Source of the DNA: Candidatus Lloydbacteria bacterium RIFCSPHIGHO2_02_FULL_50_18
GTDB taxonomy: Bacteria > Patescibacteriota > Minisyncoccia > Phycocordibacterales > UBA6899
DNA length: 28,217 nucleotides
Direction: 5' to 3'
Assembly: GCA_001821395.1 (NCBI GenBank)
Contig: MHLM01000005.1
Span: forward strand, 1-28,217
In this document: positions 532-19,700 of the stretch, piece after piece
Position numbering within the stretch: the first letter of the stretch is position 1
Layout of the letters: each line of letters starts with the position of its first letter
Notes under the pieces: model-generated
Told to the model about the DNA's origin: nothing
Seen by the model: the letters and a program-made list of their open reading frames with translations, nothing else
Database searches by the model: none
Program-made: the position numbers and the translations under genes

Positions 532-1209
532 ATGATTAAAAAAATCTTTACCACTCATCACAAGAAGATCATCGTCGGTGCACCGATCGTTTTTTTAGTC
601 ATTGTGAGCGGAGGAGGGATGTTCGGTAGCGGAAATTATTTTTCATTCGCTTCAAATAATAAAAATTTTCCTATCGTCGGAGACATGCTGCCGGTCACAT
701 TAGCAATGAACGCCGACACCCCGATCAATGCGGTCGGAGGGACGGTAACATTTGATCCGGACATGCTCAATGTTACATCGTTGTCACGCGTCACCTCGTC
801 CATCGACCTCTGGAGTGAAGAGCCTTCATATTCGAACACGGAAGGCACATTACATTTCTCCGGCGGACTTGTCGGAGAAAAAGCGTCACTCCCAATACAC
901 GGGACGATACTCACCATTAACTTCACCGTGCTCAAGCCGGGAAAGACCGTCATCACGATGAAAAACGGAGAGCTGCTCGCACACGATGGCGAGGGAACCA
1001 ACGTCGCATTAGGATCAAACACACTTTCCCTATATACACGTGAAATGAAAAATGCTTCCCCTGATGTCAACGGGGACGGCGTACTCTCAGTGAGCGACGC
1101 AAACGCACTGTATCTAAAAACTTTTTTTACCTATGATCCGCAGTATGACCTGAACGGGGATGGGAGGGTGAGCTGGGCTGATGTACGACTCCTCATTTCC
1201 CTCTTCTAG
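532..1209 (+). CDS. Small membrane-anchored protein (225 aa) with an N-terminal signal anchor, a cohesin-like domain and a C-terminal type-I dockerin
   Basis: The N-terminus IIVGAPIVFLVIVSGG is hydrophobic. The central domain carries LWSEEPSY, HFSGGL and ILTINFTVLKPGKTVI, motifs shared with the 348-aa and 581-aa proteins downstream. The C-terminus DVNGDGVLSVSDANALYL...DLNGDGRVSWADVRLL is two dockerin-style Ca-binding segments (DxNGDGxV). Confidence 0.8.
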   Translation: MIKKIFTTHHKKIIVGAPIVFLVIVSGGGMFGSGNYFSFASNNKNFPIVGDMLPVTLAMNADTPINAVGGTVTFDPDMLNVTSLSRVTSSIDLWSEEPSYSNTEGTLHFSGGLVGEKASLPIHGTILTINFTVLKPGKTVITMKNGELLAHDGEGTNVALGSNTLSLYTREMKNASPDVNGDGVLSVSDANALYLKTFFTYDPQYDLNGDGRVSWADVRLLISLF

Positions 1210-3305: not shown

Positions 3306-3322
3306 GAAAAGAAACGCAAATT

Positions 3323-4479: not shown

Positions 4480-5691
4480 TTAGCCTGTCCAATTAAAGAG
4501 TAAGATCGAGAAATCAGTGAGATTCACGGCACCGTCGACATTCAAATCTGCAATCGCATGAGCGGTCCCCCAATGAAAGAGCAGGATAGAAAAGTCGACC
4601 AAGTTCACTTTGCCATCACCATTTAAGTCCGCATTCCCGGGTGTTTGCACGTCGCGTGTACCGACATAAAAGTTCACTGCCTGGCTAAAACCGCTCTTCG
4701 CCTGAGCTCCGACTCCGAATTGTTCGAACATACCCTTGATCGCATGAAATGCCTCATTCTCAATTCCTGTTGTAGGTACCGTCGCGTTCCAAAGACCGGA
4801 AGCGGACGACGTTGCCGTGGCACGCGGACTTGTCTCTTTATCCATGAACAACGAAACTTTTGCATTAGGGGCGGTCGAACCAAGCGCATCAAGCAATTCA
4901 TCCATGCTGATCTTTTTGGACTTCAAGTCGATCGTCGGAGGTAAGAAAACATTCGATACTGACGTGACCGCATTTTGTGTCACCTGAAATGTCGTCGTGA
5001 AAGTGATCGAGCGCACCCCCCTACCGTCGGTAGACCAAAAACCGAACGTGATAGGACCCGGCGTGACATTTGATGTCTCGTATGAAAAATCAGCGGCGGC
5101 ATCAGTCTGAACGACACCGACGATACTGCCATCCTTGAGGATGTTTACCGACGTATTTGGATATGCTTTCCCCTCGAGAATAACGCGTGTTTGCGCATGC
5201 ACGGGAACAGTTCCGTTAAAGACACCGCCGCCGCCGGAACCTCCCGATATGACCGGCGGAGGGGGGGGTGGTGCTGGAGGTGTTGACGTCGAAAGCGGAG
5301 GGGCTTCTTGTACGCAAGTCGCACTGCATAGGTCGCCACTCGTATTGTTCCCATCATCACACTGCTCAAGATACAGTGCCTGCAGGGCGTTATCTCCACA
5401 GTATGGGCCGTACCCTGAACACGTCGAATTACAGCGCCGCGCGGCAAAACTCGGCCCATAGGCTCCGTCGTTGAACAATCCATCGTCACATACCTCACCC
5501 GGGTTGAGTATCCCGTCATTGCAGATAGAGATCATGATCGTCGTCGTCGCTACCGCCGCAAGGAGACGAGCGGGAACAATGATCGAGAACAGTGCGGAAA
5601 AAAATAGGGTGGATACGAGCACGAGGTGAAGAGACTTCTCTCTATGTCCGTGTGCAGAAGCCCGCGAAATGAGTCGTTTGAGATGAAACAT
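4480..5691 (-). CDS. Membrane-anchored protein (403 aa): N-terminal signal anchor, two Myxococcus-type cysteine-rich repeats, Pro/Gly linker, beta-rich domain, C-terminal type-I dockerin
   Basis: CNDGILNPGEVCDDGLFNDG...CNSTC and CGDNALQALYLEQCDDGNNTSGDLCSATCVQE fit the cysteine-rich repeat pattern (C..GE.CDDGN...GD.CS..C). The linker is STPPAPPPPPPVISGGSGGGG. The C-terminus DLNGDGKVNLVDFSILLFHWG...DLNVDGAVNLTDFSILLFNWTG is a duplicated dockerin Ca-binding segment plus helix. Only 9 nt separate it from the upstream gene. Confidence 0.85.
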   Translation of the reverse strand: MFHLKRLISRASAHGHREKSLHLVLVSTLFFSALFSIIVPARLLAAVATTTIMISICNDGILNPGEVCDDGLFNDGAYGPSFAARRCNSTCSGYGPYCGDNALQALYLEQCDDGNNTSGDLCSATCVQEAPPLSTSTPPAPPPPPPVISGGSGGGGVFNGTVPVHAQTRVILEGKAYPNTSVNILKDGSIVGVVQTDAAADFSYETSNVTPGPITFGFWSTDGRGVRSITFTTTFQVTQNAVTSVSNVFLPPTIDLKSKKISMDELLDALGSTAPNAKVSLFMDKETSPRATATSSASGLWNATVPTTGIENEAFHAIKGMFEQFGVGAQAKSGFSQAVNFYVGTRDVQTPGNADLNGDGKVNLVDFSILLFHWGTAHAIADLNVDGAVNLTDFSILLFNWTG

Positions 5692-5700
5692 AGGTCCGAA

Positions 5701-6750
5701 TCACCTTCTCCGAGAGAGGTCGACAACTCCACCCGAGGAAGCGGCGCTGCGAGGTCGTCTCGGCGACTCACTTTCTGGGGGGTCACGATGCCGAGCGTCA
5801 TCATTGCTCGCGCGTTCTCTCCTCCGTCTTGGTTTTTTCATCCTAAAGAACATCACAAACATGATCAGCAATGCAAGCGTTCCTATCGGCAAAATGACAG
5901 AAAGTTGCTGTGAAAGTTTTAGCCCCTCAAACCCATATTCTTCATAACCGGTAATGGTCCCCCTCGGAAGAATGGAGAGCGCGAGTTCTCCCGCTTGAGC
6001 ATTACGCGTTTCATCTTTTTCAATCGAATACTTGACGCGATACGCTCCGGGAGGAAGCCATGTCGGGAAATAGGCGACGACTTTCTTTGTGTCAAACGGG
6101 AGGACGGAATCGACGGTATTTGAATTTTCGGTGGTTTCAAGCAATTGCTGTCCGGACACGTCAAAGATCTGCAACGAGACCTTGTACGGTATCGCCGGAA
6201 CATTGCCGATATTTTCAATGTACATTGCAAACTTCACCTTACCCGGAAAAGAGAGCCACCATTTTTGATGACCTTCCTCTGCCTCGAACAACTCAACACG
6301 GCGCACTGAGAAATCAAATATCTGATCCACTACCTTCAGCTGGACGTCGATCTGCGCACCGAGCGCAAGCGAAACACCGGTGGACTGACCCGCGGAGGAA
6401 GATGTACGGATACGAATGTTCCCGTTGTAACCGCCGAGTTTTGCATCATCGGGAACACGAACGGTCACATGGAGCTTCACCTGTGATTCGCCCTTTGGTA
6501 ATACAAATTTAATTCCGCGATCAAAAGAGAACCAGGATTCAATAGCGGGAAGATTCAAAGCAAGTTCGGCGTTCAAGTCCTCAACGGGATCACTGCGTAC
6601 AATGATGATCTCCTGCGTATATTCTGAACCGGGGCGTAATGTGTCGTTGTGCACGTATGGAGGAGTAATGCCAAAACCCGCGAATGCCGTATTCGCAAAA
6701 GCTCCGTAAAGAAGCATCGAACCCATTACAAAAAGTATCCCTCGTTTCAT
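5701..6750 (-). CDS. Surface protein (350 aa): signal peptide, beta-sandwich-like body, C-terminal TM and a strongly basic Arg-rich tail
   Basis: The track ORF 5701..6972 was trimmed to the Met at 6750, where the signal peptide MKRGILFVMGSMLLYGAFANTAFA starts. The C-terminus is LPIGTLALLIMFVMFFRMKKPRRRRERASNDDARHRDPPESESPRRPRS. An extended -10 box lies 19 nt upstream. The architecture is loosely reminiscent of the DUF916/DUF3324-type cell-surface proteins of Gram-positives, but this was not verified. Confidence 0.8.
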   Translation of the reverse strand: MKRGILFVMGSMLLYGAFANTAFAGFGITPPYVHNDTLRPGSEYTQEIIIVRSDPVEDLNAELALNLPAIESWFSFDRGIKFVLPKGESQVKLHVTVRVPDDAKLGGYNGNIRIRTSSSAGQSTGVSLALGAQIDVQLKVVDQIFDFSVRRVELFEAEEGHQKWWLSFPGKVKFAMYIENIGNVPAIPYKVSLQIFDVSGQQLLETTENSNTVDSVLPFDTKKVVAYFPTWLPPGAYRVKYSIEKDETRNAQAGELALSILPRGTITGYEEYGFEGLKLSQQLSVILPIGTLALLIMFVMFFRMKKPRRRRERASNDDARHRDPPESESPRRPRSAASSGGVVDLSRRR

Positions 6751-6769
6751 GGAAAATTGGGGCTCAAGC

Positions 6770-6778
6770 ATTGTAACA
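6770..6778 (-). promoter_or_regulatory. Extended -10 promoter element TGTTACAAT for the 350-aa surface-protein gene
   Basis: Plus-strand ATTGTAACA at 6770-6778 is the reverse complement of TGnTACAAT. It sits 19 nt upstream of the ATG at 6750. No convincing -35 was seen. Confidence 0.4.
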
Positions 6779-7278
6779 CATACAAAAAGCGAGTTTTTAG
6801 CGGGATAGGTAGACTGGGGACTAGCGGTGGATAAGATGGCGCTCGGGTTTTCTTCTTTTGAAAGGAACATCATCAATTTTTCCAGCAAAAATTGTGATTC
6901 TGCTCGGCAAGCCAGGCTTAGCCAGGGGCAAAGACCGAGCCCTGGCTCAGAAGCCTCCGCAAGTCCTTTCAAAAGAAGAAAAACCTCGCTTGGAAAAGGG
7001 CGAGTTCTGCGCTAGGGGCTCCGAAGCAACGAGTCTCTCTCGCTTAAAAAAATATGTGCTTCAACGCTGCTGGGGTACCGAAAGTATCTACTCACCTCGC
7101 TGAAGAGGAAAATGACGTATATTTCCGCATCCGAGGCGATTTCACAAAGCAAACACCCCTTTTAGAGAGAGATGGGGGGGGAACTGTGATACAAGAAAAG
7201 TATTTAGGTTACGGATATTCTTATAACTATACCACCAAGATTCCTATTACAAAGCCGGGTAGCACGTAAGGGAATTAT

Positions 7279-7345
7279 AAAATTCTCTTAAATTTTGATG
7301 CGATACGAGGCGCAAGCAAACAGTATCGAGGAGGCGTACTCAGGA
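7279..7345. repeat. Copy 1 of a ~65-bp intergenic direct repeat (partner at 7590-7657, ~85% identity)
   Basis: AAAATTCTCTTAAATTTTGATGCGATACGAGGCGCAAGCAAACAGTATCGAGGAGGCGTACTCA at 7279-7345 aligns with AAAATTCTCGTTAATTTTGATGCGATACGAGGCGCAAACAAGCAGTACCGAGGAGACGTACTCA at 7590-7657. CGATACGAGGCGCAA is identical in both. The copies differ by one 1-nt indel and a few transitions. Confidence 0.7.
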
Positions 7346-7589
7346 TACGATTTGAGCTCCATGAGACGGTTGAATTAAGTGAGATGCTATTTGAACTCAA
7401 ATACGCATATATTTTGGATGAGATGCAGTCAACGAAAAACAGCACGAATCATGTTCTATCAAGCGTTCACGTTAATTGGGATGCAATTTCGTGTTTTGCG
7501 CCCGAGCGATGCCGGAGAAGCTGTATGAGCTATACTGCTCCCCGACTCGTTTGGGTTGCAAAACGCGAAGTGTGCCAAATTGGGAAACT

Positions 7590-7718
7590 TAAAATTCTCG
7601 TTAATTTTGATGCGATACGAGGCGCAAACAAGCAGTACCGAGGAGACGTACTCATCGTACTTCTCCTCGGTCTGCGCAGTGCAGCAACGACGTAGCGCGC
7701 AAAATTAACGAGAATTTT
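7590..7718 (-). terminator. Compound stem-loop immediately 3' of the 625-aa gene. A 19-bp perfect inverted repeat encloses a 14-bp hairpin and the palindrome CTGCGCAG, and carries copy 2 of the direct repeat
   Basis: AAAATTCTCGTTAATTTTG at 7590-7608 is exactly complementary to CAAAATTAACGAGAATTTT at 7700-7718. Inside it, CCGAGGAGACGTAC (7638-7651) pairs with GTACTTCTCCTCGG (7657-7670) with one mismatch around loop TCATC. On the minus-strand transcript the outer stem ends in UUUU and the inner hairpin is followed by a U-rich stretch UACUGCUUGUUUG. Confidence 0.5.
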
Positions 7719-9596
7719 TTACCAGTAGGTGCGATCGGAGGTAATACCTAAGATAGTATTTTGTCCCAAGTAGTCACCCGAAACAGTGATGGTGCCCGGT
7801 ACCGCAATTCCCCAATGTGTCGTCTTGTATGCCTGAGTTGCGGTCGTTGTTGATTTTTCGATATGAACAGCAAACGTTGCTCCCGGGTTAGCGAGGAGTG
7901 AAACTGCTGATGCATACGCTATCGATGAGGTGGCATAGCGCTGATTTGCAACAACGATAGTATCTGTTGGTAGACCGGAACAAGCTGCGGGGTATCCAAT
8001 ACACATGTCTGCCCCATAGAGCGTCTCATCAAGACCAAGATTGCCTGCTGCGTACATGTCAGTACGATTGAGCGATGAGTTCCCTACGGTCCCTGAGTCA
8101 TTGCCCGGCTGCAATCCACCGTATGCGATCGTCGTCGTTGAAACACTGTAAGCAAGGAAACTCGTGAGCTCGTTGCCACTTGATGCATCCACTAGGGAGC
8201 TGGTGGCAAAATTATTATCGGCGGCTTGCGCCGAAGCGAGCCAGTTTTGCGCCCAATAAGTAGGGTCGGTAGCAGGACCACCGGTTCCGTCGGTCGCGTC
8301 AGCTACATACCAGAGCGGGAATGTACAGTTCCAGATAACGTCAGAATCACCTGTTCCGAGGCAGGAAGCTGGACTTGCCGTGCACGTCACGTTCCAAGCG
8401 ATACTCGTGGTTGCCGCAGCACCAGGGTAGCAGTTATTCGCATTATACCACTGAGACTTATCACAGAATGCGCTCGTGATACCGGAGCGATAGACATCGG
8501 TCAATCCGAAGACGATCTCATTCGTCGAGGATGCAGTCTGACAGCTGTTCTGGTCCGATACCGTATATTGGACACTAAAGCCCGGCGTTTGCGTTGCGAT
8601 ACCAGTAAGTATTAAATTTCCCGAGCCATCTGTATCAAGCAAACTAATAGAGGCAGCCGCGATCGTTGGTGTCATATTATTAACAATGAGCGAACGATTG
8701 GTCCCCTGCATTCCACCCAGGGCCGCGAGGCCACCATGGGCATCGATCACATAGCCATATGCGGCGAAGGTACCATCCGGGTCAGGATTTGGGAGGACAA
8801 CCGTTGTCGTTGGTGTTGCAGTAGCGAACGGCGAAACTCCCCATGTGCCCCCCGCTCCGCATGCTGTACCCGTAAAGTCTGCTGCTTTGCAGACGAACAG
8901 TTCAACAGTGTCAGTATCCGCACCTTGATACGTATCGGGGTCAGATGATGTCGCGTACCAATTGACCGTGCCTCCGGGATTCGTCGGTGAGTCATTCACA
9001 AAGAGCGTAAAGGTCGGACGATGATTCACTACAAACGGTGATGATGTTGTCCCACTACCTGATTTCGGCGTTGGATTGCATGCAGCGTTGACGGCATTTC
9101 CGTCGCAGATATACGCATACCAATCGTTGAATTCTGCACTAAATTGGGAGCCCGTGCCTTCAGTGGTCGTTGTTGCAACGGTTGACGTTGCCCCCGACAG
9201 TGTCGATGCAGACCGTATCCAGCGATTACTGACACCTCCCCCGCATTCCGGAGCTCCGCCATTCACGGGAGTTGGCGCAGACAATGCCTTACAAATGAGC
9301 AGGTAATAGTTATCTCCTGATGAGTCAGTGACGTTGGCTCTCCATGTGACATTTTGCGATACATTTGTTGGTGTCGACGTAGATGAACCCGGAGCTTCCT
9401 GCGCATCCCCATACGGACTATTCCATTGCGGTGGCGTATTTAGCACGGTAACTGAGGTCGTCGCATTATTTGCTAGGGCAACATTCCCACGAGGCACGTC
9501 GATGACAACTCCAAGCATGATAAGGCACACTCCAAGCAATGTAGTGGCAATAGTGATCTTCCCTCCGATCGTTGTATGAGAGTTTTTGAGCGTCAT
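7719..9596 (-). CDS. Secreted or membrane-anchored Ser/Thr/Gly/Asn-rich protein with many cysteines (625 aa); function unknown
   Basis: The N-terminal hydrophobic segment is KITIATTLLGVCLIMLGVVI. The body is low-complexity S/T/G/N/A-rich with many paired Cys (e.g. LICKAL...ECGGG, ICDGNAVNAAC). The ORF is long and uninterrupted. A TATAAT box lies 14 nt upstream of the ATG. Confidence 0.75.
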   Translation of the reverse strand: MTLKNSHTTIGGKITIATTLLGVCLIMLGVVIDVPRGNVALANNATTSVTVLNTPPQWNSPYGDAQEAPGSSTSTPTNVSQNVTWRANVTDSSGDNYYLLICKALSAPTPVNGGAPECGGGVSNRWIRSASTLSGATSTVATTTTEGTGSQFSAEFNDWYAYICDGNAVNAACNPTPKSGSGTTSSPFVVNHRPTFTLFVNDSPTNPGGTVNWYATSSDPDTYQGADTDTVELFVCKAADFTGTACGAGGTWGVSPFATATPTTTVVLPNPDPDGTFAAYGYVIDAHGGLAALGGMQGTNRSLIVNNMTPTIAAASISLLDTDGSGNLILTGIATQTPGFSVQYTVSDQNSCQTASSTNEIVFGLTDVYRSGITSAFCDKSQWYNANNCYPGAAATTSIAWNVTCTASPASCLGTGDSDVIWNCTFPLWYVADATDGTGGPATDPTYWAQNWLASAQAADNNFATSSLVDASSGNELTSFLAYSVSTTTIAYGGLQPGNDSGTVGNSSLNRTDMYAAGNLGLDETLYGADMCIGYPAACSGLPTDTIVVANQRYATSSIAYASAVSLLANPGATFAVHIEKSTTTATQAYKTTHWGIAVPGTITVSGDYLGQNTILGITSDRTYW

Positions 9597-9616
9597 AAAA
9601 ACGTGTCTATATTATA
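9597..9616 (-). promoter_or_regulatory. -10 box TATAAT with a very short leader for the 625-aa gene
   Basis: The minus strand reads cctgTATAATATAGACACGTTTTT-ATG. The hexamer is at plus-strand 9611-9616, 14 nt from the start codon. No SD was seen. Confidence 0.45.
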
Positions 9617-9866
9617 CAGGAGCAATGCAAGAAAGAATTCAAAGTTATACACAGTTTTGCATGTTTCGTAAGATCGAGATCGACATGCGAGCAAACAAAA
9701 TGACGTCATCAAGGCGAATGGTGAACGAAAATACAGATACAACTGACAGGTAACCCCTGCTCAAGGAGCAGGAGCACAAGCATGAAATGACCCGATACTC
9801 GAAAAAATCACTACCAAGAATTGAGCGCTCTTAAAATCGTTGGGCTCAAAAAATAACGACAGGAGA

Positions 9867-11075
9867 CTACTTATATCTGATAGCGTCAAGCGGGTTTAAG
9901 CTTGCAGCGCGTCTCGCCGGGAAAACTCCAGTAAGAAAACCGACGATCGCAGAAAATACGGCGATGAAGGTAAGGAAGGTCAAGGGGAACGAAAAGAGAG
10001 AGACGGATTTTCCGCCAAAATTCGATGCGGCGACGTTCATAATACTATTCAGCACAAACCCAATAGTCGCACCAAAAAGAATTCCCATGATCCCACCGAG
10101 AAAACCGACGATGACGGCTTCCGCAACAAAGAGGATCTGAATATCACCGGAAGACGCTCCGAGCGTACGCATGATACCGATCTCGGCAGTACGCTCCAAG
10201 AGCGTCACGGTCATGGTGTTGAACATACCGATAGCAGACACCGTGAGCGCGATGCCACCGAATACTGCGAGTACCGCCTGAATACCCTGGAAGATCTTGT
10301 TCGCCTGTTCGACCGTCTTTGAAAGTGCGGTCACGACATACCCCTTCTTCACGATCTCCGTTTGTGTGGGATCAAGAAAATCACTTTTTGTGATACGCAC
10401 CTGTACTTTGTCGTATGTTTTTGTTTGAACATGATTCTGCAATTCCGAGAGTGGGATGATTGCGGCAATAAAATTTTCTTCGTTGGTGACCCCAACAACC
10501 TTATACGATTTATCGATGGCGACCTGCTCGGATTCATCAGTCCCCTCTTTCAATATGAACACACGAAAGTTCACCATTTTACCCAATGCATCTTTCGGCG
10601 TATTTATTGCAAAGAGTTTGAGCACCGCCTTGGTGAGAATCACTCCATCCTTATCTTTCGCCTCATTCCCCGCAAGGAAAAGATCTCCGGCAACAGCTGT
10701 CGCGCCAGAGTAACGAAAAAACGCTGGTTCTGCCCCCTGCAGGAAAGCATTACCCGAAAGTCCTTCAATGGTGATGAGCGCAGGAAAACTTGCAAGGGGT
10801 GTAACGTCCTTCACGTTAGGAAGTGCCGCAAATTCTTTTATGGAACGATCAGTAAGCTGAACCGCTTTCGACGGAGGATTATTGACCGAAAGCGAGAGCA
10901 ATGTTTCGCCGAAGACGATCTGCTCGAGGATGATGTTCTGCAATCCGAAGCCGAGACCAACGAGGGTCACAACGGCACCCGTTCCGACGCCCATGCCGGC
11001 AATAGTAAGCCACGTACGAGCCGGATTCGTCTTAAACGCACGCGTCGACAGCATCGCAATATCTTGAAGTCTCAT
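9867..11075 (-). CDS. ABC transporter permease, FtsX/MacB family (402 aa; TM1, large extracytoplasmic domain, TM2-4)
   Basis: The N-terminal TM is WLTIAGMGVGTGAVVTLVGLGFGL. A ~230-aa soluble domain follows. The C-terminus carries three TM helices and the FtsX-family signature ERTAEIGIMRTLGAS. Confidence 0.9.
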   Translation of the reverse strand: MRLQDIAMLSTRAFKTNPARTWLTIAGMGVGTGAVVTLVGLGFGLQNIILEQIVFGETLLSLSVNNPPSKAVQLTDRSIKEFAALPNVKDVTPLASFPALITIEGLSGNAFLQGAEPAFFRYSGATAVAGDLFLAGNEAKDKDGVILTKAVLKLFAINTPKDALGKMVNFRVFILKEGTDESEQVAIDKSYKVVGVTNEENFIAAIIPLSELQNHVQTKTYDKVQVRITKSDFLDPTQTEIVKKGYVVTALSKTVEQANKIFQGIQAVLAVFGGIALTVSAIGMFNTMTVTLLERTAEIGIMRTLGASSGDIQILFVAEAVIVGFLGGIMGILFGATIGFVLNSIMNVAASNFGGKSVSLFSFPLTFLTFIAVFSAIVGFLTGVFPARRAASLNPLDAIRYK

Positions 11076-11091
11076 AGCTCACTCTATTATA
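11076..11091 (-). promoter_or_regulatory. -10 box TATAAT plus conserved ATAGAGTGAGCT spacer directly abutting the permease start codon (near-leaderless)
   Basis: The minus strand reads tcTATAATAGAGTGAGCT-ATG. The hexamer is at plus-strand 11086-11091, with a 10-nt spacer to the ATG. The ATPase gene carries the same 18-mer pattern. Confidence 0.5.
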
Positions 11092-11387
11092 GAAGAGAAG
11101 TGGACGAAGACCAAGTGTTCATACCTCATATCTAAGCTATCTCGCAGGAGCGACACGACCAATACCCTCCCCGACTCGTCTTGATCACAACAAAAAAGCG
11201 CATCGAATTTGAAAACCCTAGAGCAAGTCAAAGATTTGGGATGAAATGCACCACAGGAGTACTTCCAAATTTCAGTACTCGAAGACTCGATGAAATTTTA
11301 GGTCGCAGGCGTCAAGGAAGGCGCGTGCTATTTTTAAAACTCTCAGATTTGGATGAAATTCGGGTGCGGCGACTGTGCGGTGTCGGA

Positions 11388-11412
11388 GCGGATGTACTCA
11401 TTGTACATTCGC
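11388..11412 (-). other. Hairpin GCGGATGTAC-TCATT-GTACATTCGC, 48 nt downstream of the ABC ATPase stop codon
   Basis: The 10-bp stem has one G-T pair. Its stem top and loop (GTAC TCATY GTAC) match the hairpin at 7638-7670, which is also exactly 48 nt past its gene's stop. No U-run follows on the minus strand. Confidence 0.35.
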
Positions 11413-11460
11413 CCGACCCGCGCAGGAAGCCAAGCCCGAAGTTCGCCAAATGTGTGAGTT

Positions 11461-12789
11461 TTAATGGTGGGCTTCGCCGGTGCGCGGAATGCCTAGTGCG
11501 ATCAATTTCTCAATCAACCGCGAAACATCGAAAGACTGCTTCTTATTAAGCCCCACACCCCCCTCCTTCTGTGACAACCCTACCTGATCTGCAAATTCAT
11601 CACGCTTAATGAACCCTCCAATACGCTGAGCGATCGCATCTTCAAAATGTTGTTTTCCTGTTGCGTCAAGACTGAGGTCAAATTGTCCTGCAACAAATTC
11701 TGCTATACGATTGATAAACTCCATATTGCGGATCTGTACTCCCTCGCCGGTTTTTGCGCGGCGAAAACGTTGGATGTCGAGGGCGTGCTCATTGATGCTC
11801 ATGAGTTTTCCGGCCATCTCTGTTGCGCGAGCAACAGGAAGTCCGACTCCTCCCGTATCAAAATCAGCCATCAGCGAACGAAGATATGTTCCTCCCTCCA
11901 TACGCCCTGAGATGACTGCCTCAGTAATCTTCTGAAGCCGCGTGATCTGATCGAAGGTTAACTCCTCGATGAGATAGTTGACGATACTTTTCACTTGAAG
12001 CTCGTTCGGTGAGTCATATGGATAAATACGCGCGATCTGTTCAATTTCGGTCACGATAGTCGTGCCCGGTGCAAGTTTCAATATTTGTCTTTTTTCCGGA
12101 TTCGGAACGATGCGCTCGACGCGACCATCCGTCATATAAACAATGCGATGCGCGTACGGCAGGTACTTTGCGTCGTGCGTCACGAGGAGCACTGTTTTTT
12201 TGTCTTTTGCGTTGATCTCCGCCAATGTATCCATAACCTGAGCCGCAGTGATCGAGTCGAGATTACCGACCGGCTCATCAGCAATGAGGATCTGCGGATC
12301 GTTCACCAAAGACCGTGCCACTGACACACGCTGCTGCTGTCCACCAGAAAGAAGGGTTGGCCGCTTGTGAGCAACTTTATCGATCATGAATCGACGGCAA
12401 AGCTCCATCCCCCGGTCAAAGCGTTCACCCGGAGGCACGCCGTCAAAGATGAGCGGGAGTGCGACATTGTCGAGCACCGTGATCGATGGGATCAGATTGA
12501 ATGACTGATACATGATACCCATCGTCTTTCGCTGAAAGTGGACCATCTGCATCGGAGAGAAATCATAGATGCTTTCACCGTTCACATACATCTTCCCCGC
12601 GGACGGCTCAAGAACTCCGAACATACAATAGAGCAGCGTCGATTTTCCACAACCGGACGGCCCAAAAAGAATGATATATTCCTGGTCAAAGATCTCCACC
12701 GTTGCTCCCTTGTTCGCCTTAAACTCATTCTCCTTCCCAAGGTTATACGTGATCTCGATCTTGTCTCCAAATATAATCGGCTTTCCCAT
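11461..12789 (-). CDS. ABC transporter ATP-binding protein (MacB/LolD-like NBD) with a ~215-aa C-terminal extension of unknown function (442 aa)
   Basis: The ABC motifs are all present: Walker A GPSGCGKST, Q-loop MYQSFNL, signature LSGGQQQRVSVARSL, Walker B ILIADEPVGNLD and H-loop LLVTHDAKY. The ABC domain ends near residue 225. Residues ~226-442 (11464-12114) are charged, have no recognisable motif and read as alpha-helical. Confidence 0.9.
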   Translation of the reverse strand: MGKPIIFGDKIEITYNLGKENEFKANKGATVEIFDQEYIILFGPSGCGKSTLLYCMFGVLEPSAGKMYVNGESIYDFSPMQMVHFQRKTMGIMYQSFNLIPSITVLDNVALPLIFDGVPPGERFDRGMELCRRFMIDKVAHKRPTLLSGGQQQRVSVARSLVNDPQILIADEPVGNLDSITAAQVMDTLAEINAKDKKTVLLVTHDAKYLPYAHRIVYMTDGRVERIVPNPEKRQILKLAPGTTIVTEIEQIARIYPYDSPNELQVKSIVNYLIEELTFDQITRLQKITEAVISGRMEGGTYLRSLMADFDTGGVGLPVARATEMAGKLMSINEHALDIQRFRRAKTGEGVQIRNMEFINRIAEFVAGQFDLSLDATGKQHFEDAIAQRIGGFIKRDEFADQVGLSQKEGGVGLNKKQSFDVSRLIEKLIALGIPRTGEAHH

Positions 12790-12805
12790 AACTGACTCTA
12801 TTATA
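12790..12805 (-). promoter_or_regulatory. -10 box TATAAT plus conserved ATAGAGTCAGTT spacer directly abutting the ATPase start codon (near-leaderless)
   Basis: The minus strand reads taTATAATAGAGTCAGTT-ATG. The hexamer is at plus-strand 12800-12805, with a 10-nt spacer to the ATG. Confidence 0.5.
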
Positions 12806-12868
12806 TAGGAGCGAGGCGATTATGGACAATGAGCTTTACGCGGTCAGTGAATGAGCATCGAGCGGGGG

Positions 12869-12889
12869 GCCGCCCGTTAACGGTTCGGC
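12869..12889. promoter_or_regulatory. 21-bp near-palindrome GCCGCCCGTTAACGGTTCGGC (perfect 10-bp core CCGTTAACGG) in the divergent ABC/two-component intergenic region; candidate operator
   Basis: The sequence is read directly. The core 12874-12883 is a perfect palindrome and the flanks match 11 of 13 positions. It is centred 39-45 bp from the receiver gene's ATG and ~85 bp from the ATPase ATG. Confidence 0.4.
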
Positions 12890-12926
12890 ACTTTCCTGTT
12901 GAATAGTAAATTGTTACCATTGAACT

Positions 12927-13313
12927 ATGAATAATGAACAACACACCGTGCTTATCGTCGAAGACGACCAGATACTGCTCCGCATGCTTGCGAATATGCT
13001 CAAGGAAAAAGGTCTCATTGTGCTCGAGGCAAAGAATGGACTGGAGGGTATGGCGCAGATAGGTGCAGCAATCCCCGACCTCATGCTGCTCGATATCGAC
13101 ATGCCACAAATGGACGGAATCGCGATGCTACGCAACCTTAAGGAAAACAATATCAAGGTCTCAACACTCATGCTCACCAATCTGACCAATAGCACCTATA
13201 TTGCCGATGCCGCAGAACTCGGTGTCAACGAGTTTCTCGTCAAATCAGACTGGGAAATAGACGACATCGTCACAAAGGTCGAAGAAAAACTTCTTCGTGC
13301 ACACCACTCATGA
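12927..13313 (+). CDS. Stand-alone response-regulator receiver (CheY-like, 128 aa; no output domain)
   Basis: VLIVEDDQILLRMLANML carries the acidic pocket DD. The phospho-acceptor Asp sits in LMLLDIDMPQMDG. STLMLT and the conserved Lys in FLVKS are present. The protein ends right after the receiver fold. Its stop overlaps the kinase start (ATGA at 13310-13313). Confidence 0.85.
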   Translation: MNNEQHTVLIVEDDQILLRMLANMLKEKGLIVLEAKNGLEGMAQIGAAIPDLMLLDIDMPQMDGIAMLRNLKENNIKVSTLMLTNLTNSTYIADAAELGVNEFLVKSDWEIDDIVTKVEEKLLRAHHS

Positions 13314-14305
13314 ATGACCCGAAAAAAAAATCTTTTTTACGCCGCGTACTCTTCGCAAACTGCGACGCACTAGGAGTGGGGATCTGGTCCTGTCCAAGTT
13401 TCATCTTTCTCATCATGGGAGCGGTGATCATTGTTACTATCCTGACAACCTATGTGATCGCGGAACAACACGCTGATCCGGAAGTCGTGATCGCCATCGT
13501 AACACTGCTCACTGTTTTTCTGCTCATCATCACTCAGGTACTCGTCAACGCATTTGAAAAGATCGTGCGCAGTAGGCAGGTTGAAGCGGCTCGCACGAAA
13601 GAAGTCGCCGAACTCAAGGATCAATTCCTCTATCTCGCTGTTCACGATCTCGCCTCAGCGGCAACAGCGGTAAAGTGGGGTCTCAAAATGCTTGAACGGA
13701 ATCCGGATAAAACACAGACACCTTACGAGCAGGAAATTTTTAGCAGTATTCGTACGCGAAATGATCGACTCGTTACACTCGTTCATCAGATCGCCCTCAT
13801 CACACAGATTGAGCACGGAGAGATCATGCTCCACACTGAGCCAGTCCTCCTTTCGGAGCTATTGAATGATGCGATAAAGAAGCAGCGGGGAGGAGATGCG
13901 CCTGAACGCGCCGCTTGTAATATCGATATCGCACCACAACTTCCGCTCTTCATCACCGACAGAGATTTCTTCAACGAAATAATTGATACGCTTCTTTATA
14001 ATGCACGCATGCATGCTCCTCATGACGGATGCAACATAGCGATCTCCGCAAAAATTGAGGCCGATACGGTGCTCGTTGTCGCAGTGGAAAATAATGGTGA
14101 AGGAATACCCGCTGAACTCCAAGCGCATATCTTCGAAAAATTCTGGCGCAATGAAAAGACCGGGAAGATCGAGCGTGCCGGATTCGGACTCTATATTGCA
14201 CAGTCCCTCGCTCGTCTCCTCGGCGGGGATATCACCTTCACCTCTGACCCCACCATCACCTGTTTCACCCTTCGCCTCCCCCTCACTCCCCCCGTAAATA
14301 CCTAA
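13310..14305 (+). CDS. Sensor histidine kinase, intramembrane-sensing type (331 aa; two TM helices, almost no extracytoplasmic loop)
   Basis: The TM helices are FIFLIMGAVIIVTILTTYVIA and VVIAIVTLLTVFLLIITQVLV. The H-box is LAVHDLASAATAV. The ATPase motifs are N-box LLYNARMHAP, G1 VENNGEGIP, F-box IFEKFWR and G2 GFGLYIAQSLARLLGG. Confidence 0.85.
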   Translation: MNDPKKKSFLRRVLFANCDALGVGIWSCPSFIFLIMGAVIIVTILTTYVIAEQHADPEVVIAIVTLLTVFLLIITQVLVNAFEKIVRSRQVEAARTKEVAELKDQFLYLAVHDLASAATAVKWGLKMLERNPDKTQTPYEQEIFSSIRTRNDRLVTLVHQIALITQIEHGEIMLHTEPVLLSELLNDAIKKQRGGDAPERAACNIDIAPQLPLFITDRDFFNEIIDTLLYNARMHAPHDGCNIAISAKIEADTVLVVAVENNGEGIPAELQAHIFEKFWRNEKTGKIERAGFGLYIAQSLARLLGGDITFTSDPTITCFTLRLPLTPPVNT

Positions 14306-14313
14306 TTGCCCTA

Positions 14314-14352
14314 AAAACAAAAACCCACTGCAGCGCAGCGAGTTTTTGTTTT
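14314..14352. terminator. Candidate bidirectional terminator hairpin after the histidine kinase gene
   Basis: AAAACAAAAAC (14314-14324) pairs with GTTTTTGTTTT (14342-14352), an 11-bp AU-only stem with a 17-nt loop containing CTGCAG. ATTGCTTTT follows on the plus strand. The stem is weak. Confidence 0.35.
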
Positions 14353-14578
14353 ATTGCTTTTAAGAACTACAGAGCCGGAGTATTGGTGAAGTCGGAAGGC
14401 ACGTCGTAAATTCGAATGCCCTGCGAGGCAAAATAAAAATATGCAAGGAAGCCTTGAAACGCCCAAATTTGAATGCAGTACAAGACGTCAAAGAATGATA
14501 CCTCCCGAGACATACTCGGAGTACGACGAGCGGGGTTCATTCTGCAGACAACGAAATGCTGCGTCAAATTTGGACGTT

Positions 14579-16078
14579 TTATTTTCCGATGTTTTTGACC
14601 CATCCGAAGGTCCCCTGGAAGTTCTCAAGAATGATATCAATGATCGATTTCTCTTTATTCGGAGTGAATAAGACGAAGTTCTCTGATTTTGTTTTATTGC
14701 GTGCCTCATCACGACATTCAACCCAGAACTGATATACCGTTGACGGCAGGAACTCGACGACGACTGACACATGGTCAGTGCGCGGTTCCTTCTCTTCACC
14801 AAGTCCGCTCGGCTCGATCGCCGGGTTCAATCCTTCGCGATAAAAGAACTGACAATATGCCTGCTCGTCCGTTCCCCAGGAAACGATGGTCTGCACTTTC
14901 GCATCTGCGGAAGGAAACAGAGTTGATTCATTGGAAACCTTGGAGATGATGGGCGGAGCAATGTCCTTGATCGTCGTGAACGAGATCGGCGCTGATGTTA
15001 CTTTGTCTCCGACGATATTCTCGGCCTTCACGATGGCCGTATAGCGAAGACCGAGCGAAAGTCCGGCGATCTTCAACTGATGCGATAGTGCAAAGACCGG
15101 TGAACCCGCGGACTTCGCCTCCTTCGTCTTTGTGTTCGTATATTCGACGGTCCCGGCGGCAGGAATCGAGGTGCGCCATGCAACGGTCGCGGAATCTGCC
15201 TCAACTTTAATGATGCGGAAATTCATGATTGACGGCAGCTGTGCCTTCGTAATGAATGTATCATCGCGAGACTCTCCCGTGAGCCCGAGGTCCGAATCAG
15301 AGACGACCTGAAAATGGTGGAGGGTTCCCGGGGAAAGCCCGTTCACGCGCACAGAATGTTCACGCGTTCGCTCACCGGCATCACCGGATTCTGTGCTATA
15401 GGCCTTATCCGTTCCGGGACGATAGTCGCTATCGCGCGCATAGCGCACTACCCCACCGGCGTCCTGATCGGTCGACCATGTCACTATCGCATAATCACTC
15501 CCCACTTCTTTCACCCCCGGACTTCCGATGATGCGTGGCGCTTCAAGTACCTTCTTTGCGACATCATCAATTTCCTCGGACACAGCCCGGAGCCCCTCCA
15601 TGGACTTCAATTGACGAACGGAAGTGATGGCACGATCGACAATCACTCTTTCGTCTACGGGAATTTTCTCGAGTTCTTTTGCGCTCATGACACCCTTGGT
15701 CGTAATGGTGTAATCACCGGAAAGCGCCTGATTGCCCCCCTCGTCGGAAGAGCCAATACGCAAATGGTACATCGTTGACGGCTCGAGGCCTTCAAGAATA
15801 AGACGATGTGTTTTTTTATTCGGTATCGAGTCACGAATGACACCGTAGTCTTTTGTCAGACCAAAATTCACTTCCGAGTCCGCGTCCTCATCAGTATTCC
15901 ACGTGATAACAGAAGTCGTTGCATTCAATGAAACAATCTCAATATTCGACAATCTTGGGGGGATCCCGTCACCGGAAACTTGAGCGAACAAAGAGGCAGG
16001 ACCGAACAGGCCATACCCAATAGCACCTCCAACCAGAGAAAGGGATGCGAGGACTCCGAGTTTGTTCATGAAGCGCAT
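14579..16078 (-). CDS. Secreted protein with four Fn3-like repeats of the purple-acid-phosphatase N-terminal type (500 aa from the MRFMNK start)
   Basis: The track ORF 14579..16171 was trimmed to the ATG at 16078, where the signal peptide MRFMNKLGVLASLSLVGGAIGYGLF begins. Four ~95-aa repeats carry the T-W-x-T-D and ...V.YG motifs: SVITWNTDEDADSEVNFG, YAIVTWSTDQDAGGVVRYA, ATVAWRTSIPAAGTVEYT and TIVSWGTDEQAYCQFFY. Confidence 0.8.
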   Translation of the reverse strand: MRFMNKLGVLASLSLVGGAIGYGLFGPASLFAQVSGDGIPPRLSNIEIVSLNATTSVITWNTDEDADSEVNFGLTKDYGVIRDSIPNKKTHRLILEGLEPSTMYHLRIGSSDEGGNQALSGDYTITTKGVMSAKELEKIPVDERVIVDRAITSVRQLKSMEGLRAVSEEIDDVAKKVLEAPRIIGSPGVKEVGSDYAIVTWSTDQDAGGVVRYARDSDYRPGTDKAYSTESGDAGERTREHSVRVNGLSPGTLHHFQVVSDSDLGLTGESRDDTFITKAQLPSIMNFRIIKVEADSATVAWRTSIPAAGTVEYTNTKTKEAKSAGSPVFALSHQLKIAGLSLGLRYTAIVKAENIVGDKVTSAPISFTTIKDIAPPIISKVSNESTLFPSADAKVQTIVSWGTDEQAYCQFFYREGLNPAIEPSGLGEEKEPRTDHVSVVVEFLPSTVYQFWVECRDEARNKTKSENFVLFTPNKEKSIIDIILENFQGTFGWVKNIGK

Positions 16079-16093
16079 GCTCTCTATAGTATA
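16079..16093 (-). promoter_or_regulatory. -10 box TATACT plus ATAGAGAGC spacer abutting the Fn3-gene ATG (near-leaderless; same family as the ABC promoters)
   Basis: The minus strand reads gaTATACTATAGAGAGC-ATG. The hexamer is at plus-strand 16088-16093, 9 nt from the ATG. Confidence 0.4.
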
Positions 16094-16121
16094 TCGCAGA
16101 ACCGATAGAAATGAATAGAAA

Positions 16122-16150
16122 AACGCCGAACTCATAAAAAGTTCGGCGTT
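16122..16150 (-). terminator. Rho-independent terminator of the small beta-strand protein gene
   Basis: AACGCCGAACT (16122-16132) forms a perfect 11-bp GC-rich stem with AGTTCGGCGTT (16140-16150) around a 7-nt loop. On the minus-strand transcript it is followed by UUUCUAUUCAUUUC. Confidence 0.6.
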
Positions 16151-16180
16151 CACTGTGCATATCCATTCCACGCTGCGCCG

Positions 16181-16663
16181 TCAATCAAATAGACGACCCA
16201 ATTCTTTGAACGGTATTTTTATACCGACAAAGATAAGCCCCTGCCCGTTGGATACCGGAGGAATGACGATGCCATAGATGCCAAAATGTTTATATTGCTT
16301 CGAGAATGAAGGGAGGATAACGCTCCCTACCGCTCCATTTTGATAATTCGGATACCCGTCCACATACCCCATCGTGGCACCGACTCTCACCCCCCAAATT
16401 TCCCACGGATGATAATGTGCAAATGCATAGTTCGACCGCAGCCCAAAGCTATTCTTATAGAAGCCCGCGGAGATCGCGGTGTTTGAATTCAATTGATATT
16501 CAACACCGAGTCCGAGATTCACTTCATTGTGCGGTGAGTCATGGGGCATGTGATAACTAAAGCCACCCGTTTGCAGCTGCCACGTACCAACCGGTACACC
16601 CTGTGCGAATGCCGTCCCCGAACCAAGCACGATAGCACCGGCGCAGATCATTTTGATGAACAT
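16181..16663 (-). CDS. Small secreted beta-strand-rich protein (160 aa), outer-membrane beta-barrel-like; the resemblance to PagL/acyloxyacyl-hydrolase or OmpW-type proteins is tentative
   Basis: The signal peptide is MFIKMICAGAIVLGSGTAFAQG. The body alternates hydrophobic and polar residues with Gly/Tyr-rich turns (GVEYQLNSNTAISAGFYKNSFG; GIYGIVIPPVSNG). An H-x-S (HDS) motif is present. The SD-like GGAGAG lies 4 nt before the ATG. The family assignment is not verified. Confidence 0.6.
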   Translation of the reverse strand: MFIKMICAGAIVLGSGTAFAQGVPVGTWQLQTGGFSYHMPHDSPHNEVNLGLGVEYQLNSNTAISAGFYKNSFGLRSNYAFAHYHPWEIWGVRVGATMGYVDGYPNYQNGAVGSVILPSFSKQYKHFGIYGIVIPPVSNGQGLIFVGIKIPFKELGRLFD

Positions 16664-16756: not shown

Positions 16757-19700
16757 CTATTGAGCAAAGAAGTAATTTGTCCCCGAGTGTGTACTCGCTG
16801 CAGTACCAAGCGGTACGGCAAGCCCCCAATAGATATCACGGAAAAATGCACTCGTTGATGTTGGTTTAGTGATGGCAACCGGGAAATAGGTCGGACTCGA
16901 TGAGGCGGACAGGATGTTGCATGTCGTACATGCACTATATGTGAACGTTGAAGTTGAATATTTTTGCTGACTGTAGGAAATAGAAGATGCACCTGCTGTC
17001 ATAGGATCCCCACCAATACCGAGATTAAGAACGGTATTACCAGTGTTATTGACTGTCGTCGTTGCGTCGGAAGCACCAGTGTCGGCACCCACGACAACGG
17101 AACCAAAACTGATGGTCGAAGACGCGCTCATGGCCTGGAGCGTAAGCACCTCTTGCGAGGCCGACATCGTGTCATATGAACTTGAGGTGTCCCACACGGA
17201 CAATATCGCCTGCCAATTATCCGCATTGAAATAACTCCCCGCATCCGTTGGATCAGCAAAGTATTTCATCGGTGCAGAACATGAAACCTCGCAACTATTT
17301 CCGGAGCAGCCATAGAGCGAGCATGATGATGTTCCGATCTGGTAACAATTATTGAGGTCTGCCGTACACGAACCTCCTCCTGCGACACTCGAACGATAGA
17401 AGGTCGATGATGCGGCAATAATATCAGCGTACCCGTTCAGGTCGGAGAGGGTTGCGGTTGCGCTGATCGTTGTCGTCGTACCTTCGGTGAGCGCGATATT
17501 GCTGTTCCCATTGAATGTCAGATCGGCGATAACAGGAGGATGGAGCACGGTCATTTCCGCGACTCTTGAATAGTTATCAAGCGGGGTGCCGGCATCGGTC
17601 GCACGGAAACAATACGCATTCTGCACTGCATATGCGGTCACCATTTGGAAGTTGTACTCAACCTCAGTGAACGATAATGCAGGGAGTGCCATCGGATTCG
17701 TCTGTATGGAGGCGTCTTTCATGATCTCGCCGTTCACGAACGTATGCAGCGCAGGAATCGAGAGTAACTGCGTGGTCGATGCTTTGTCGGTAAACTGTGT
17801 CGATGCCGCCATACATGCGGGACTCGTTCCGCACGAACCATTCGGAGTGACATCGATATAATTTCCTGTCGGTACCGATTCACAGTTCGGCGACGAAAGT
17901 TTTTCCGCTACCTGGAGTCGGAATTGTTTATTCGTGAGCGGAAGTCCGGAATTCCTGACCGTCATACGCAAGCGAATATTCTCGCCCGCAAGCTGGTTCA
18001 CGAGCACGGTATTCTCTGCCGCCTTCCATGTTGCTCCTGAGTCCGCCTGCTCAAGACCAAAATCAACGCCGGGGGCGCTTGAAATATATTGTCGTGCAGC
18101 AGGGGTATCCCAACCGCTGTGTTGATACCAGAATGTGAAGCCAACTCCACCGGATGTATAAGTAGAATCAACCGCAGAAGTCGTCGCAAAAACTGCCCCA
18201 GTATCGTCGTACACCGTGACATTGATCTGGTTATTTGAAAGCCAGTCAATGGATGTTTCATACCAATGTAATCCATTTGGCCACGTAACGCTTGTGGTGC
18301 CAATTTCTGACGCGCTCCCACTGTGAGAATTGTATGCCACGTTTTTTGCAATGGCTACCTTATCTGCTCCGGCAGCCTCAAGACAGACAGCGTAATTTTG
18401 ATGGGCGGTGATGGGCGACTGGATCGCGAACATGAAACATGGCTCATCAGAATTATCAGCTGTTATATTAATCTGCTGGAAAAATCGGAATGTCGTGTCG
18501 CGACCGACACCAGCCCCAACCTGGCCGATACCACTTGTATTCTGGGCGGTGGTATTTCCTGCCGAGGCAGAAAGTCCATAATTGCCCTCATGGTATATTG
18601 ATGCGCTATTCGCGAATAGCGAAACATCTCCGGAATATTCAGAAAGGTTATTGTCCTCAAAGTCATCGAAGAATTTGAAGGTTGAGGTACCGCTTGACCC
18701 GGCCGCAACACTTGCGTTGCCGTAGTACATGAAGATATCGGTCACGGCAGAGCCGGTAAGCGTAGGGACCTTCACCCAAACGGTCGACGAGCCGCTTGTC
18801 ACATAGGTTTCCACCCAATAAGGTATCGAGGTCGTACCGCCCGAGTCGGTAAAGCGCAGATCGTTGAAATTACTCTGCATGTCCGCATCATACGGCACAT
18901 TCATCTTTACCTGCGCGTTCGTAACGGTCGACGCCGAATTATTCGTGATGCGGACCCGCTGACGTTTTGACCAGCTCTGGCTGTACCATTCGGTCGCAAG
19001 CGCTCCCTCCCCTCCGTCGTCATTGCGCCAACGATACGTCTTCTGGTCGGAGAACAGACAGGAACTATCAGACCAACGGATGGAGCCGCAGGCATCAATA
19101 CCGTCGTTATCATACTTTTCACTTGCCATGTTCCCATGCTCATAGGTCCAGGTGATCGCATTCGTTGTCGTACCGATACGACTCACATTCGCACCGCCAA
19201 TAGCGGTCGTCGTTGCAAAGCGCACCTGCGAATACTGCGCCGACGCGTTTTGATCAATGGTCGATGAAGCGATAGTGATCATACTCCCACCATTCGTCGC
19301 AAGCTCGAAATCGCCATTATTCATTCCCGTGATCGTTGTCGTCCCGGTCAAATTGAGCCCCGTCGCATCAAGATTCCTGAATTGGTAATAGTTCGCATTC
19401 AAGGTCGCGTCACTCACCGTAAGACCGTAACTTCCGCTCGCAATACGATCGACCGTTGTTGATGCGGCGGCGACACCCACCATTTGCAGCGATGAATTCG
19501 TGCTGAACACTGCGGTTGCTCCCGCACCAAAGCGCACGTTGACCTGTCGAGCGCTTCCGCCTAACGCAACGCCGTCAAAGTTGGTCGCATAGCTCCAGTA
19601 GTCCGTTCCCGAGACCCTGGCATATGCTCCATAGATATTGAGTGCACCTGAAACAGCACCATGGTTCTGCGAGTAGAGCGATGCGTTCGCGGGGATCTGA

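Follow-up and report, generated by a model that had tools for sequence, protein, structure and literature searches.

The 28,217-nt contig MHLM01000005.1 of Candidatus Lloydbacteria bacterium RIFCSPHIGHO2_02_FULL_50_18 (assembly GCA_001821395.1), referred to here over its full length as the window, carries an ATP-binding cassette (ABC) ATPase and permease encoded divergently from a stand-alone receiver and an intramembrane-type histidine kinase. We find that these four genes probably represent two independent units, adjacent to each other in this lineage alone, namely a type-VII ABC pair that belongs to a cluster of envelope-protein genes and a self-contained two-component cassette. An earlier note on the same DNA had read them as a module reminiscent of Bce-type peptide sensing, with the kinase informed by the transporter and the receiver acting by protein contact, perhaps on an extension of the ATPase. 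That interpretation is borne out in part: its description of the genes holds, its Bce-like functional module is largely unsupported, and a transporter-coupled sensing module is not supported by the comparisons described below.

The ABC pair belongs to a conserved envelope-protein cluster

With the C-terminal extension of the ATPase alone aligned as the query, a scan of one genome per GTDB species identified 157 species that encode a relative of it; loci were fetched for 80 of these, and the counts out of 68 given below refer to species-level loci in which 2 kb or more precede the ATPase. Matching the window proteins to all open reading frames (ORFs) of the fetched loci yielded a fixed gene order, in which the giant DUF2341 gene is followed by the Fn3 gene, ATPase, permease, p625, p423, p403, p348, p624 and, on the opposite strand, p225 (Table 1). 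Fn3, ATPase, permease and p625 occur in this order in 60 of the 68 loci, with the downstream genes keeping their order too, and in most loci the giant DUF2341 gene precedes the Fn3 gene. Contigs of five increasingly distant ATPase homologues also have these neighbours, likewise on one strand, and the position of the ABC pair between the Fn3 gene and p625 is fixed over about 80 species, whose extensions have diverged to ~33% identity. Given this fixed gene order across species, the ABC pair forms part of the core of a cluster of some ten envelope-protein genes conserved across Paceibacteria.

Hydropathy analysis assigned an N-terminal signal or anchor to all cluster products and, to three of them, a C-terminal transmembrane (TM) anchor as well. 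Their Pfam matches comprise cohesin, dockerin and Ig-like domains, those to cohesin scoring below the Pfam gathering score, while p625 has no Pfam match and profiles of p625 and p423 found no matches at E 1 among PDB sequences. Giant proteins of Patescibacteria often carry DUF2341 (PMC11809585); the one encoded here is 6245 aa long on L002, a groundwater metagenome contig identical to the window across 17.5 kb. We found no description of the cluster in the literature searched on Parcubacteria, Patescibacteria and the candidate phyla radiation (CPR).

A type-VII ABC pair outside the characterised families

The Pfam domain matches of the four genes all exceed gathering cut-offs. For the permease these are MacB_PCD (72.5 bits, cut-off 27) and FtsX (57.9 bits, cut-off 25.5), and its hydropathy profile shows four TM segments (residues ~23–45, 261–290, 310–350 and 356–388), with the ~215-residue loop between TM1 and TM2 corresponding to a MacB-type extracytoplasmic domain. 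Domain matches and hydropathy thus agree with the earlier description of a 4-TM MacB-type permease rather than a 10-TM one. Its closest solved chains are YtrF, MacB, Spr0695 of S. pneumoniae and LolF/C/E, and it aligns with MacB and LolF along its full length. The nucleotide-binding domain (NBD) of the ATPase has its best solved relatives among type-VII NBDs, namely MJ0796, PsdA, YtrE, LolD, MacB and BceA. FtsX and MacB-like domains, four TM segments with a domain between TM1 and TM2, and an intact LolD/MacB/FtsE-like NBD are the features by which type-VII systems are recognised, and all are present.

Assignment to FtsEX, LolCDE or MacB was considered and rejected, as every curated NCBIfam cut-off was missed by a wide margin. 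Scores were 90.7 for MacB (cut-off 966), 78 for LolCE (362), 33–40 for FtsX (225–255), 166 for LolD (308) and 160 for FtsE (265). On these sequence comparisons, the ABC pair is a member of the type-VII class but of none of its characterised families.

The ATPase carries a family-wide C-terminal extension

Pfam ABC_tran covers residues 29–174 of the ATPase, and its Walker A, LSGGQQQR signature, Walker B with E172, and H-loop (H205) are invariant across 65 homologues. Past about residue 230, Pfam gave no match in the remaining ~213 residues, in keeping with the extension of about 215 aa reported before. Whether the whole ATPase or only the extension is modelled, AlphaFold predicts two four-helix modules (pLDDT, the model's confidence score, ~90), encoded at ~11752–12018 and 11482–11736 and each with a GGVG loop, and profile–profile comparison identified the two modules as homologous repeats (probability 96%, E 2.8e-9). 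The linker (12007–12102) contains the highly conserved motif NPEK.Q..PG.TI.TEIEQIARIYPYDSP, the most conserved of the extension, despite which AlphaFold confidence in this segment is low.

A profile search with the extension against 1.84 billion representatives found just 270 proteins, in nearly all of which the domain occupies residues ~225–440 of a ~440-aa protein of the same architecture. Full-length ATPase homologues, extension included, are abundant in Paceibacteria (56–100% identity, all of ~440–480 aa), and the extension is absent from solved type-VII NBDs, whose matches cover only residues ~7–238 of the ATPase. The extension is therefore a family-wide and family-specific cytoplasmic domain, which most likely regulates or docks the ATPase. 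Its suggested co-variation with the receiver did not materialise: it is present in all 157 species loci regardless of receiver and, being found with or without a receiver nearby, does not co-vary with it.

The receiver and kinase as a predicted cognate cassette

The 128-aa receiver retains E12/D13, D56, T84 and K106, its Pfam receiver domain spans residues 8–118, and Response_reg is its only Pfam domain, so that the lack of a DNA-binding domain pointed out previously stands. Acidic pocket, Asp, Thr and Lys, with no further domain, identify it as a single-domain response regulator. Its stop codon overlaps the start of the kinase gene in a 4-nt ATGA. Likewise as described before, the kinase is of the intramembrane type without a sensory loop, with two TM segments by hydropathy (~29–51, encoded at 13394–13462, and ~59–82, at 13484–13555) separated by ~7 residues. 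H112 (13643–13645) lies in the LAVHDLA motif of the dimerisation and histidine-phosphotransfer domain, and the N, G1 and G2 boxes read LLYNARMH, ENNGEGIP and GFGLYIA. HATPase_c is matched at 76.3 bits and NCBIfam kinase alignments span residues 72–327; Pfam HisKA gave no match in the kinase at E 0.01. Among the called genes of the window there are no chemotaxis, phosphorelay (Hpt) or protease-adaptor genes.

The family to which the kinase belongs is small, with ~25 clusters (40–100% identity, 290–336 aa), outside which scores fall from 228 to 101 bits into generic kinases. In all four further family members examined (L096–L099), a receiver of 126–133 aa, 50–63% identical to that of the window, lies directly upstream of the kinase; receivers paired with this kinase family are overall 46–70% identical to the window's. 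Since a receiver precedes the kinase in every member examined, the pair appears to be a conserved cognate unit of a small, Paceibacteria-specific family. In L099 the pair is located between the ATPase and the Fn3 gene, as in the window.

The cytoplasmic N-terminus of the kinase has, just before TM1, two Cys in the motif C..L.[VI]..[WY].CP (residues 18–29, 13361–13396). Both Cys are kept in five of six kinase family members, including two of the three with a degenerate kinase described below, and L21 and P29 are invariant. The motif could be a redox- or metal-sensing site.

Association between the ABC pair and the two-component genes

In the window, the receiver and kinase genes are wedged between the ATPase and the Fn3 gene. 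We find this arrangement of receiver and kinase beside the ABC pair only in the window's species, L016, L017 and L099, and among the 68 ATPase-centred loci in L016 and L017 only. A two-component gene of any kind is present in 12 of the 68 loci and there is none in the other 56, and the contigs of the five distant ATPase homologues lack the window's receiver–kinase pair. The four-gene neighbourhood is already broken at 85–88% ATPase identity, and co-occurrence extends to a few close relatives only. Substitution rates of the two units are uncoupled, kinase and receiver evolving far faster than the ATPase: identity to the L016 and L017 proteins, respectively, is 94% and 92% for the ATPase, 63% and 57% for the kinase, and 70% and 60% for the receiver. 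Moreover, the cassette stands by itself in L096, L097 and L098 (kinase 41–46% and receiver 50–55% identical to the window's), where it lies among genes for BipA, a methyltransferase, an RNA-recognition-motif protein and an amino-acid permease and where no ABC genes are called at those loci, which speaks against a module coupled to the ABC pair.

Several observations nonetheless weigh against a complete separation of the two units. Two-component genes account for 9 of ~29 crude cargo ORFs in the Fn3–ATPase junction, compared with 5 of ~99 across the remaining junctions. L015/L023, L024 and L025 carry, in the same divergent position, stand-alone receivers of a second family; these were rejected as orthologues of the window's receiver, to which they are 31–39% identical versus 46–70% within its family. 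HisKA kinases are encoded upstream of the Fn3 gene in L011, L036, L038 and L045, and L083 has a PAS kinase and three receivers between ATPase and permease. In L030–L032, homologues of the window's kinase are found in the same divergent position, with no adjacent receiver, an Arg in place of the phospho-acceptor His, and degenerate N, G1 and G2 boxes. Their ORFs are intact at 49–57% identity, the ATPases there being 83–85% identical, and by sequence they look like a conserved pseudokinase, whose retention hints at a role tied to the locus. In addition, the absence of ABC genes noted for L096–L098 covers those loci only. As to the envelope side, the idea that the ABC pair works on cluster proteins draws solely on gene order and family analogy, and neither Pfam nor the profiles of p625 and p423 against PDB revealed a recognisable relative for any cluster partner.

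These points could be accommodated if, in a Lloydbacteria-like clade, two-component genes control or respond to the cluster or the ABC motor without forming a Bce-type complex, either through expression from the shared divergent promoter region via a partner or through the activity of the machine. We consider such a lineage-specific link a realistic but rather doubtful alternative. The enrichment of two-component genes 5′ of the ATPase, the stand-alone receivers of two families in one divergent position and the pseudokinase retained in L030–L032 are in its favour, and the cluster-specific palindromic promoter element described in the next section could be an operator; on the other hand, the receiver has no DNA-binding domain, the same cassette is found away from the cluster in L096–L098, and 56 of 68 species have the cluster without an adjacent two-component gene. 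The enrichment itself could stem from a single ancestral insertion, or a few, at a junction that tolerates them, with inheritance thereafter.

A Bce-like sensory complex proper, in which the kinase would read ABC activity through contact with the permease and the receiver would act on the ATPase extension, seems to us very unlikely. It is suggested by the BceS-type kinase architecture (two TM segments and a 7-residue loop) and by its location next to an FtsX-fold ABC system, and what spares it full rejection is the two-component enrichment upstream of the ATPase together with the dead kinase kept beside the ATPase in L030–L032. Against this, every family member has the extension and few have the receiver, the neighbourhood is not conserved and kinase and receiver occur without adjacent ABC genes, both evolve far faster than the ATPase, the permease has four TM segments, not 10, and the receiver is no transcription factor. 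That an FtsX-fold ABC system and a loop-less kinase lie side by side is, on its own, no evidence of a Bce-like sensory module. Nor does it appear at all probable that the ABC pair is an ordinary MacB/YtrEF-like pump for efflux or detoxification of a small molecule or peptide, its place in the cluster being without functional meaning: although its best family and structure matches are MacB, YtrF/YtrE, DarD and LolD-type proteins, its scores come nowhere near the curated cut-offs for the named families, its ATPase includes a cytoplasmic domain that is specific to the family and unseen in solved type-VII NBDs, and its position between Fn3 and p625 is fixed across ~80 species with extensions down to ~33% identity. 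Two independent units, an envelope-cluster ABC pair and a self-contained cassette, therefore remain the reading that we prefer.

The ATPase–permease gap and its promoter-like elements

The ATPase and permease are, as reported before, separate genes 385 bp apart (11076–11460). Elsewhere their spacing is tight, at most 17 bp in half of 71 loci, and exceeds 300 bp in 11 of the 71; the bigger gaps contain unrelated cargo (S8 peptidase, DUF2726 with NUDIX, YdjM and a PaaX/Cas2-like gene). In the window, the first third of the gap, directly 3′ of the ATPase stop, can form a hairpin of ~123 nt followed by a U-run (ΔG −61.8 kcal/mol; z = −5.95 versus shuffles for the whole gap). The hairpin has the same position in L016, L017, L026 and L018, lies ~130–170 nt downstream of the stop in L020, and shows compensatory changes at 15 of 34 pairs. 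Rfam has no match anywhere in the window, hairpin included; the hairpin may serve as a terminator or stabilise the mRNA, or may be an element resembling repetitive extragenic palindromes (REP) or miniature inverted-repeat transposable elements (MITE). Further copies of the hairpin are present elsewhere in L017. Conservation of the gap in L016 is limited to its first 130 nt and last ~23 nt.

At the other end of the gap, an 11-bp palindrome with a TATAAT box ends 7 nt before the permease ATG and nearly duplicates an element upstream of the ATPase (a 28-nt near-repeat), and TATAATAGAGT has just two sites in the window, one upstream of each of the two genes. The ATPase copy contains the −10 box of a promoter-like region, TTGTCC-18-TATAAT (10 of 12 matches), the top such site within 9600–14700; this box ends 10 nt before the ATPase ATG and lies inside the element CCTATATAATAGA (12797–12809; TCTATATAATAGA in relatives). 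The motif upstream of the ATPase is kept in ten relatives and the palindrome upstream of the permease in L015, L016, L017, L018, L023 and L025. In relatives (L014–L028, L034) the palindrome takes the form TCTAT(N1–3)ATAGA with an embedded TATAAT, and nearly all occurrences (~18 of 20 in 1.36 Mb of loci) lie no more than ~30 nt from the ORF starts of the ATPase, the permease or, in some cases, the Fn3 gene. Moreover, the palindromic TATAAT element is found upstream of both ATPase and permease only where the two are split, and may be a shared promoter/operator giving very short leaders. The tight spacing elsewhere, the hairpin and the shared promoter-like element lead us to conclude that an operon originally contiguous has been interrupted in this lineage by the 385-bp gap, both halves keeping the same promoter-like element.

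A 122-aa ORF (11181–11549, plus strand), antisense to the 3′ end of the ATPase gene and to the gap, is probably not a gene: it has no Pfam match, is uncalled on eight identical contigs and is not conserved in L016.

Gene calls and other features of the window

The ORF coordinates of all four genes match those of the earlier note exactly, and the same genes are called on eight independent metagenome contigs of identical sequence. Features are listed in Table 1.

Table 1. Coordinates of features of the window and of the degenerate kinase homologues of other loci. Signals and anchors are by hydropathy.
Feature	Coordinates	Strand	Remarks
ABC permease	9867–11075	−	402 aa; type-VII, MacB/FtsX fold
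ABC ATPase	11461–12789	−	442 aa; NBD and C-terminal extension
ATPase NBD, residues 1–229	12103–12789	−	Pfam ABC_tran and full catalytic motif set
ATPase C-terminal extension, residues 230–442	11464–12102	−	Linker and two predicted four-helix modules
Stand-alone receiver	12927–13313	+	128 aa; Pfam Response_reg only
Intramembrane-type histidine kinase	13310–14305	+	331 aa; Pfam HATPase_c
Hairpin, ~123 nt, then U-run	11338–11460	−	Directly 3′ of ATPase stop; first third of gap
11-bp palindrome TCTATAATAGA with TATAAT box	11083–11093	−	Ends 7 nt before permease ATG
ATPase promoter-like region, TTGTCC-18-TATAAT	12797–12829	−	10/12 matches
Giant DUF2341 surface protein	16757–28217	−	Runs beyond window end; first gene of conserved cluster
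Fn3 / Pur_ac_phosph_N envelope protein	14579–16171	−	Pfam; conserved upstream neighbour of ATPase
p625, Cys-rich envelope protein	7719–9596	−	N-terminal anchor; conserved gene right after permease
p423	5701–6972	−	N-terminal signal/anchor and C-terminal TM anchor
p403	4480–5691	−	DUF4215 and dockerin; N-terminal signal/anchor
p348, cohesin-like	3323–4369	−	N-terminal signal/anchor and C-terminal TM anchor
p624, cohesin-like and Big_13	1560–3434	−	N-terminal signal/anchor and C-terminal TM anchor
p225, cohesin-like and dockerin	532–1209	+	N-terminal signal/anchor
Kinase homologues, dead	L030:8242–9267; L031:8274–9233; L032:2379–3347 (minus strand of each locus)		Divergent from ATPase; intact ORFs

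A 160-aa protein whose signal peptide looks cleavable is encoded between the giant and Fn3 genes (16181–16663, minus strand). It has no Pfam match and turned up only on contigs identical to the window; at this junction, other species have different small genes. The p625–p423 spacer, of ~750 bp, contains a 73-nt direct repeat (7270–7342 and 7582–7654, 88% identical, 312 nt apart), and gene callers place just two short ORFs (56 and 71 aa) there. Cargo at other loci includes an ORF with a YADD motif that by eye resembles a reverse transcriptase (L059:8263–9264, plus strand), an ORF pair resembling, again by eye, a cytosine methyltransferase with an HNH-type partner (L046:9314–10908, plus strand) and a protein that Pfam identifies as PaaX/Cas2-like (L017:6060–6644, plus strand). 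The content of the variable junctions around the ATPase suggests that they are insertion hot spots for mobile DNA.

Proposed mechanism and significance

By analogy with type-VII systems, which act in the envelope and not as cross-membrane solute carriers (PMC5985334, PMC12646458), the ABC pair would not be a solute pump. Its ATPase dimer would hydrolyse ATP in the cytoplasm, and the permease would pass the ATP-driven movement across the membrane to its ~215-residue extracytoplasmic domain, which could then do mechanical work on envelope proteins encoded by the cluster, for example by extracting, releasing or assembling the membrane-anchored cohesin/dockerin components that carry the giant protein. 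The extension, as a family-wide part of this machine, would regulate or dock the ATPase. As for the two-component cassette, which occupies the variable Fn3–ATPase junction and whose two genes would be translationally coupled, its family leads us to expect that the kinase autophosphorylates on H112 and passes the phosphate to D56 of the receiver, which would then act on a target through protein contact.

Taking this further, we tentatively suggest, as a possibility more than an expectation, that the ABC pair is the motor of an undescribed, Paceibacteria-wide envelope machine for a cohesin/dockerin scaffold with a giant adhesin (6,000–7,500 aa), to which some lineages added kinases, pseudokinases and receivers as regulators. 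Here the scaffold would be assembled, anchored or released by a type-VII ABC system whose cytoplasmic control domain, built of tandem helical modules, is unique. What is new is an uncharacterised conserved cluster in a major CPR lineage, with a type-VII motor whose cytoplasmic domain has no known relative, and this cluster is a more promising lead than the four-gene module. CPR bacteria are thought to live attached to other cells; if it is true that the cluster builds an attachment apparatus, it would offer a testable handle on how these uncultivated bacteria hold hosts or surfaces.

Comparison with known systems

In BceAB–BceRS of Firmicutes, as in the window, an FtsX-fold ABC system adjoins a kinase with two TM segments and a short linker. 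The Bce response regulator is a DNA-binding transcription factor, unlike the 128-aa regulator of the window, which consists of a receiver only, with no DNA-binding domain. BceB has 10 TM helices, with its extracytoplasmic domain between TM7 and TM8, and the Bce kinase has two TM helices with only a short linker and no extracytoplasmic domain (PMC11009047); the window permease differs in having 402 aa and four TM segments, not 10. Bce transporters and kinases are also described as co-occurring and co-evolving (PMC11009047, citing Dintner 2011), whereas co-occurrence here is confined to a few close relatives and the rates are uncoupled. Of the Bce-module features tested, the loop-less kinase alone matches.

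Closer to the layout of the window is HssRS–HrtAB of Staphylococcus aureus, in which a two-component system is encoded divergently beside a 4-TM MacB-type permease and a separate ATPase. Its kinase, HssS, carries an extracytoplasmic sensor domain, and its regulator, HssR, is a DNA-binding protein of the OmpR type and activates the hrtAB promoter; the window kinase differs in being without a sensor loop and the window receiver in being without an output domain. The latter is, like CheY, Spo0F, DivK and CpdR, of the ~120–130-aa class that consists of a receiver only with the residues of phospho-chemistry intact, but unlike this class its family is specific to Paceibacteria and always found directly upstream of a loop-less kinase. 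The receiver is an ordinary member of the stand-alone class, and the two-component part of the locus is ordinary.

The ABC pair, for its part, resembles MacB, LolCDE, FtsEX, YbbAP, YtrEF of B. subtilis and Spr0694/0695 of S. pneumoniae (type-VII mechanotransducers) in having a separate NBD with full catalytic motifs and a permease of the FtsX fold with four TM segments, the first two of which are separated by a large MacB-type domain. Unlike those systems, it has no recognisable membrane-fusion, LolA-like or EnvC-like partner, and unlike solved type-VII NBDs, its ATPase carries an extension of ~213 residues with two repeated four-helix modules. The genomic partners of the pair are a giant DUF2341 protein and cohesin/dockerin-like proteins.

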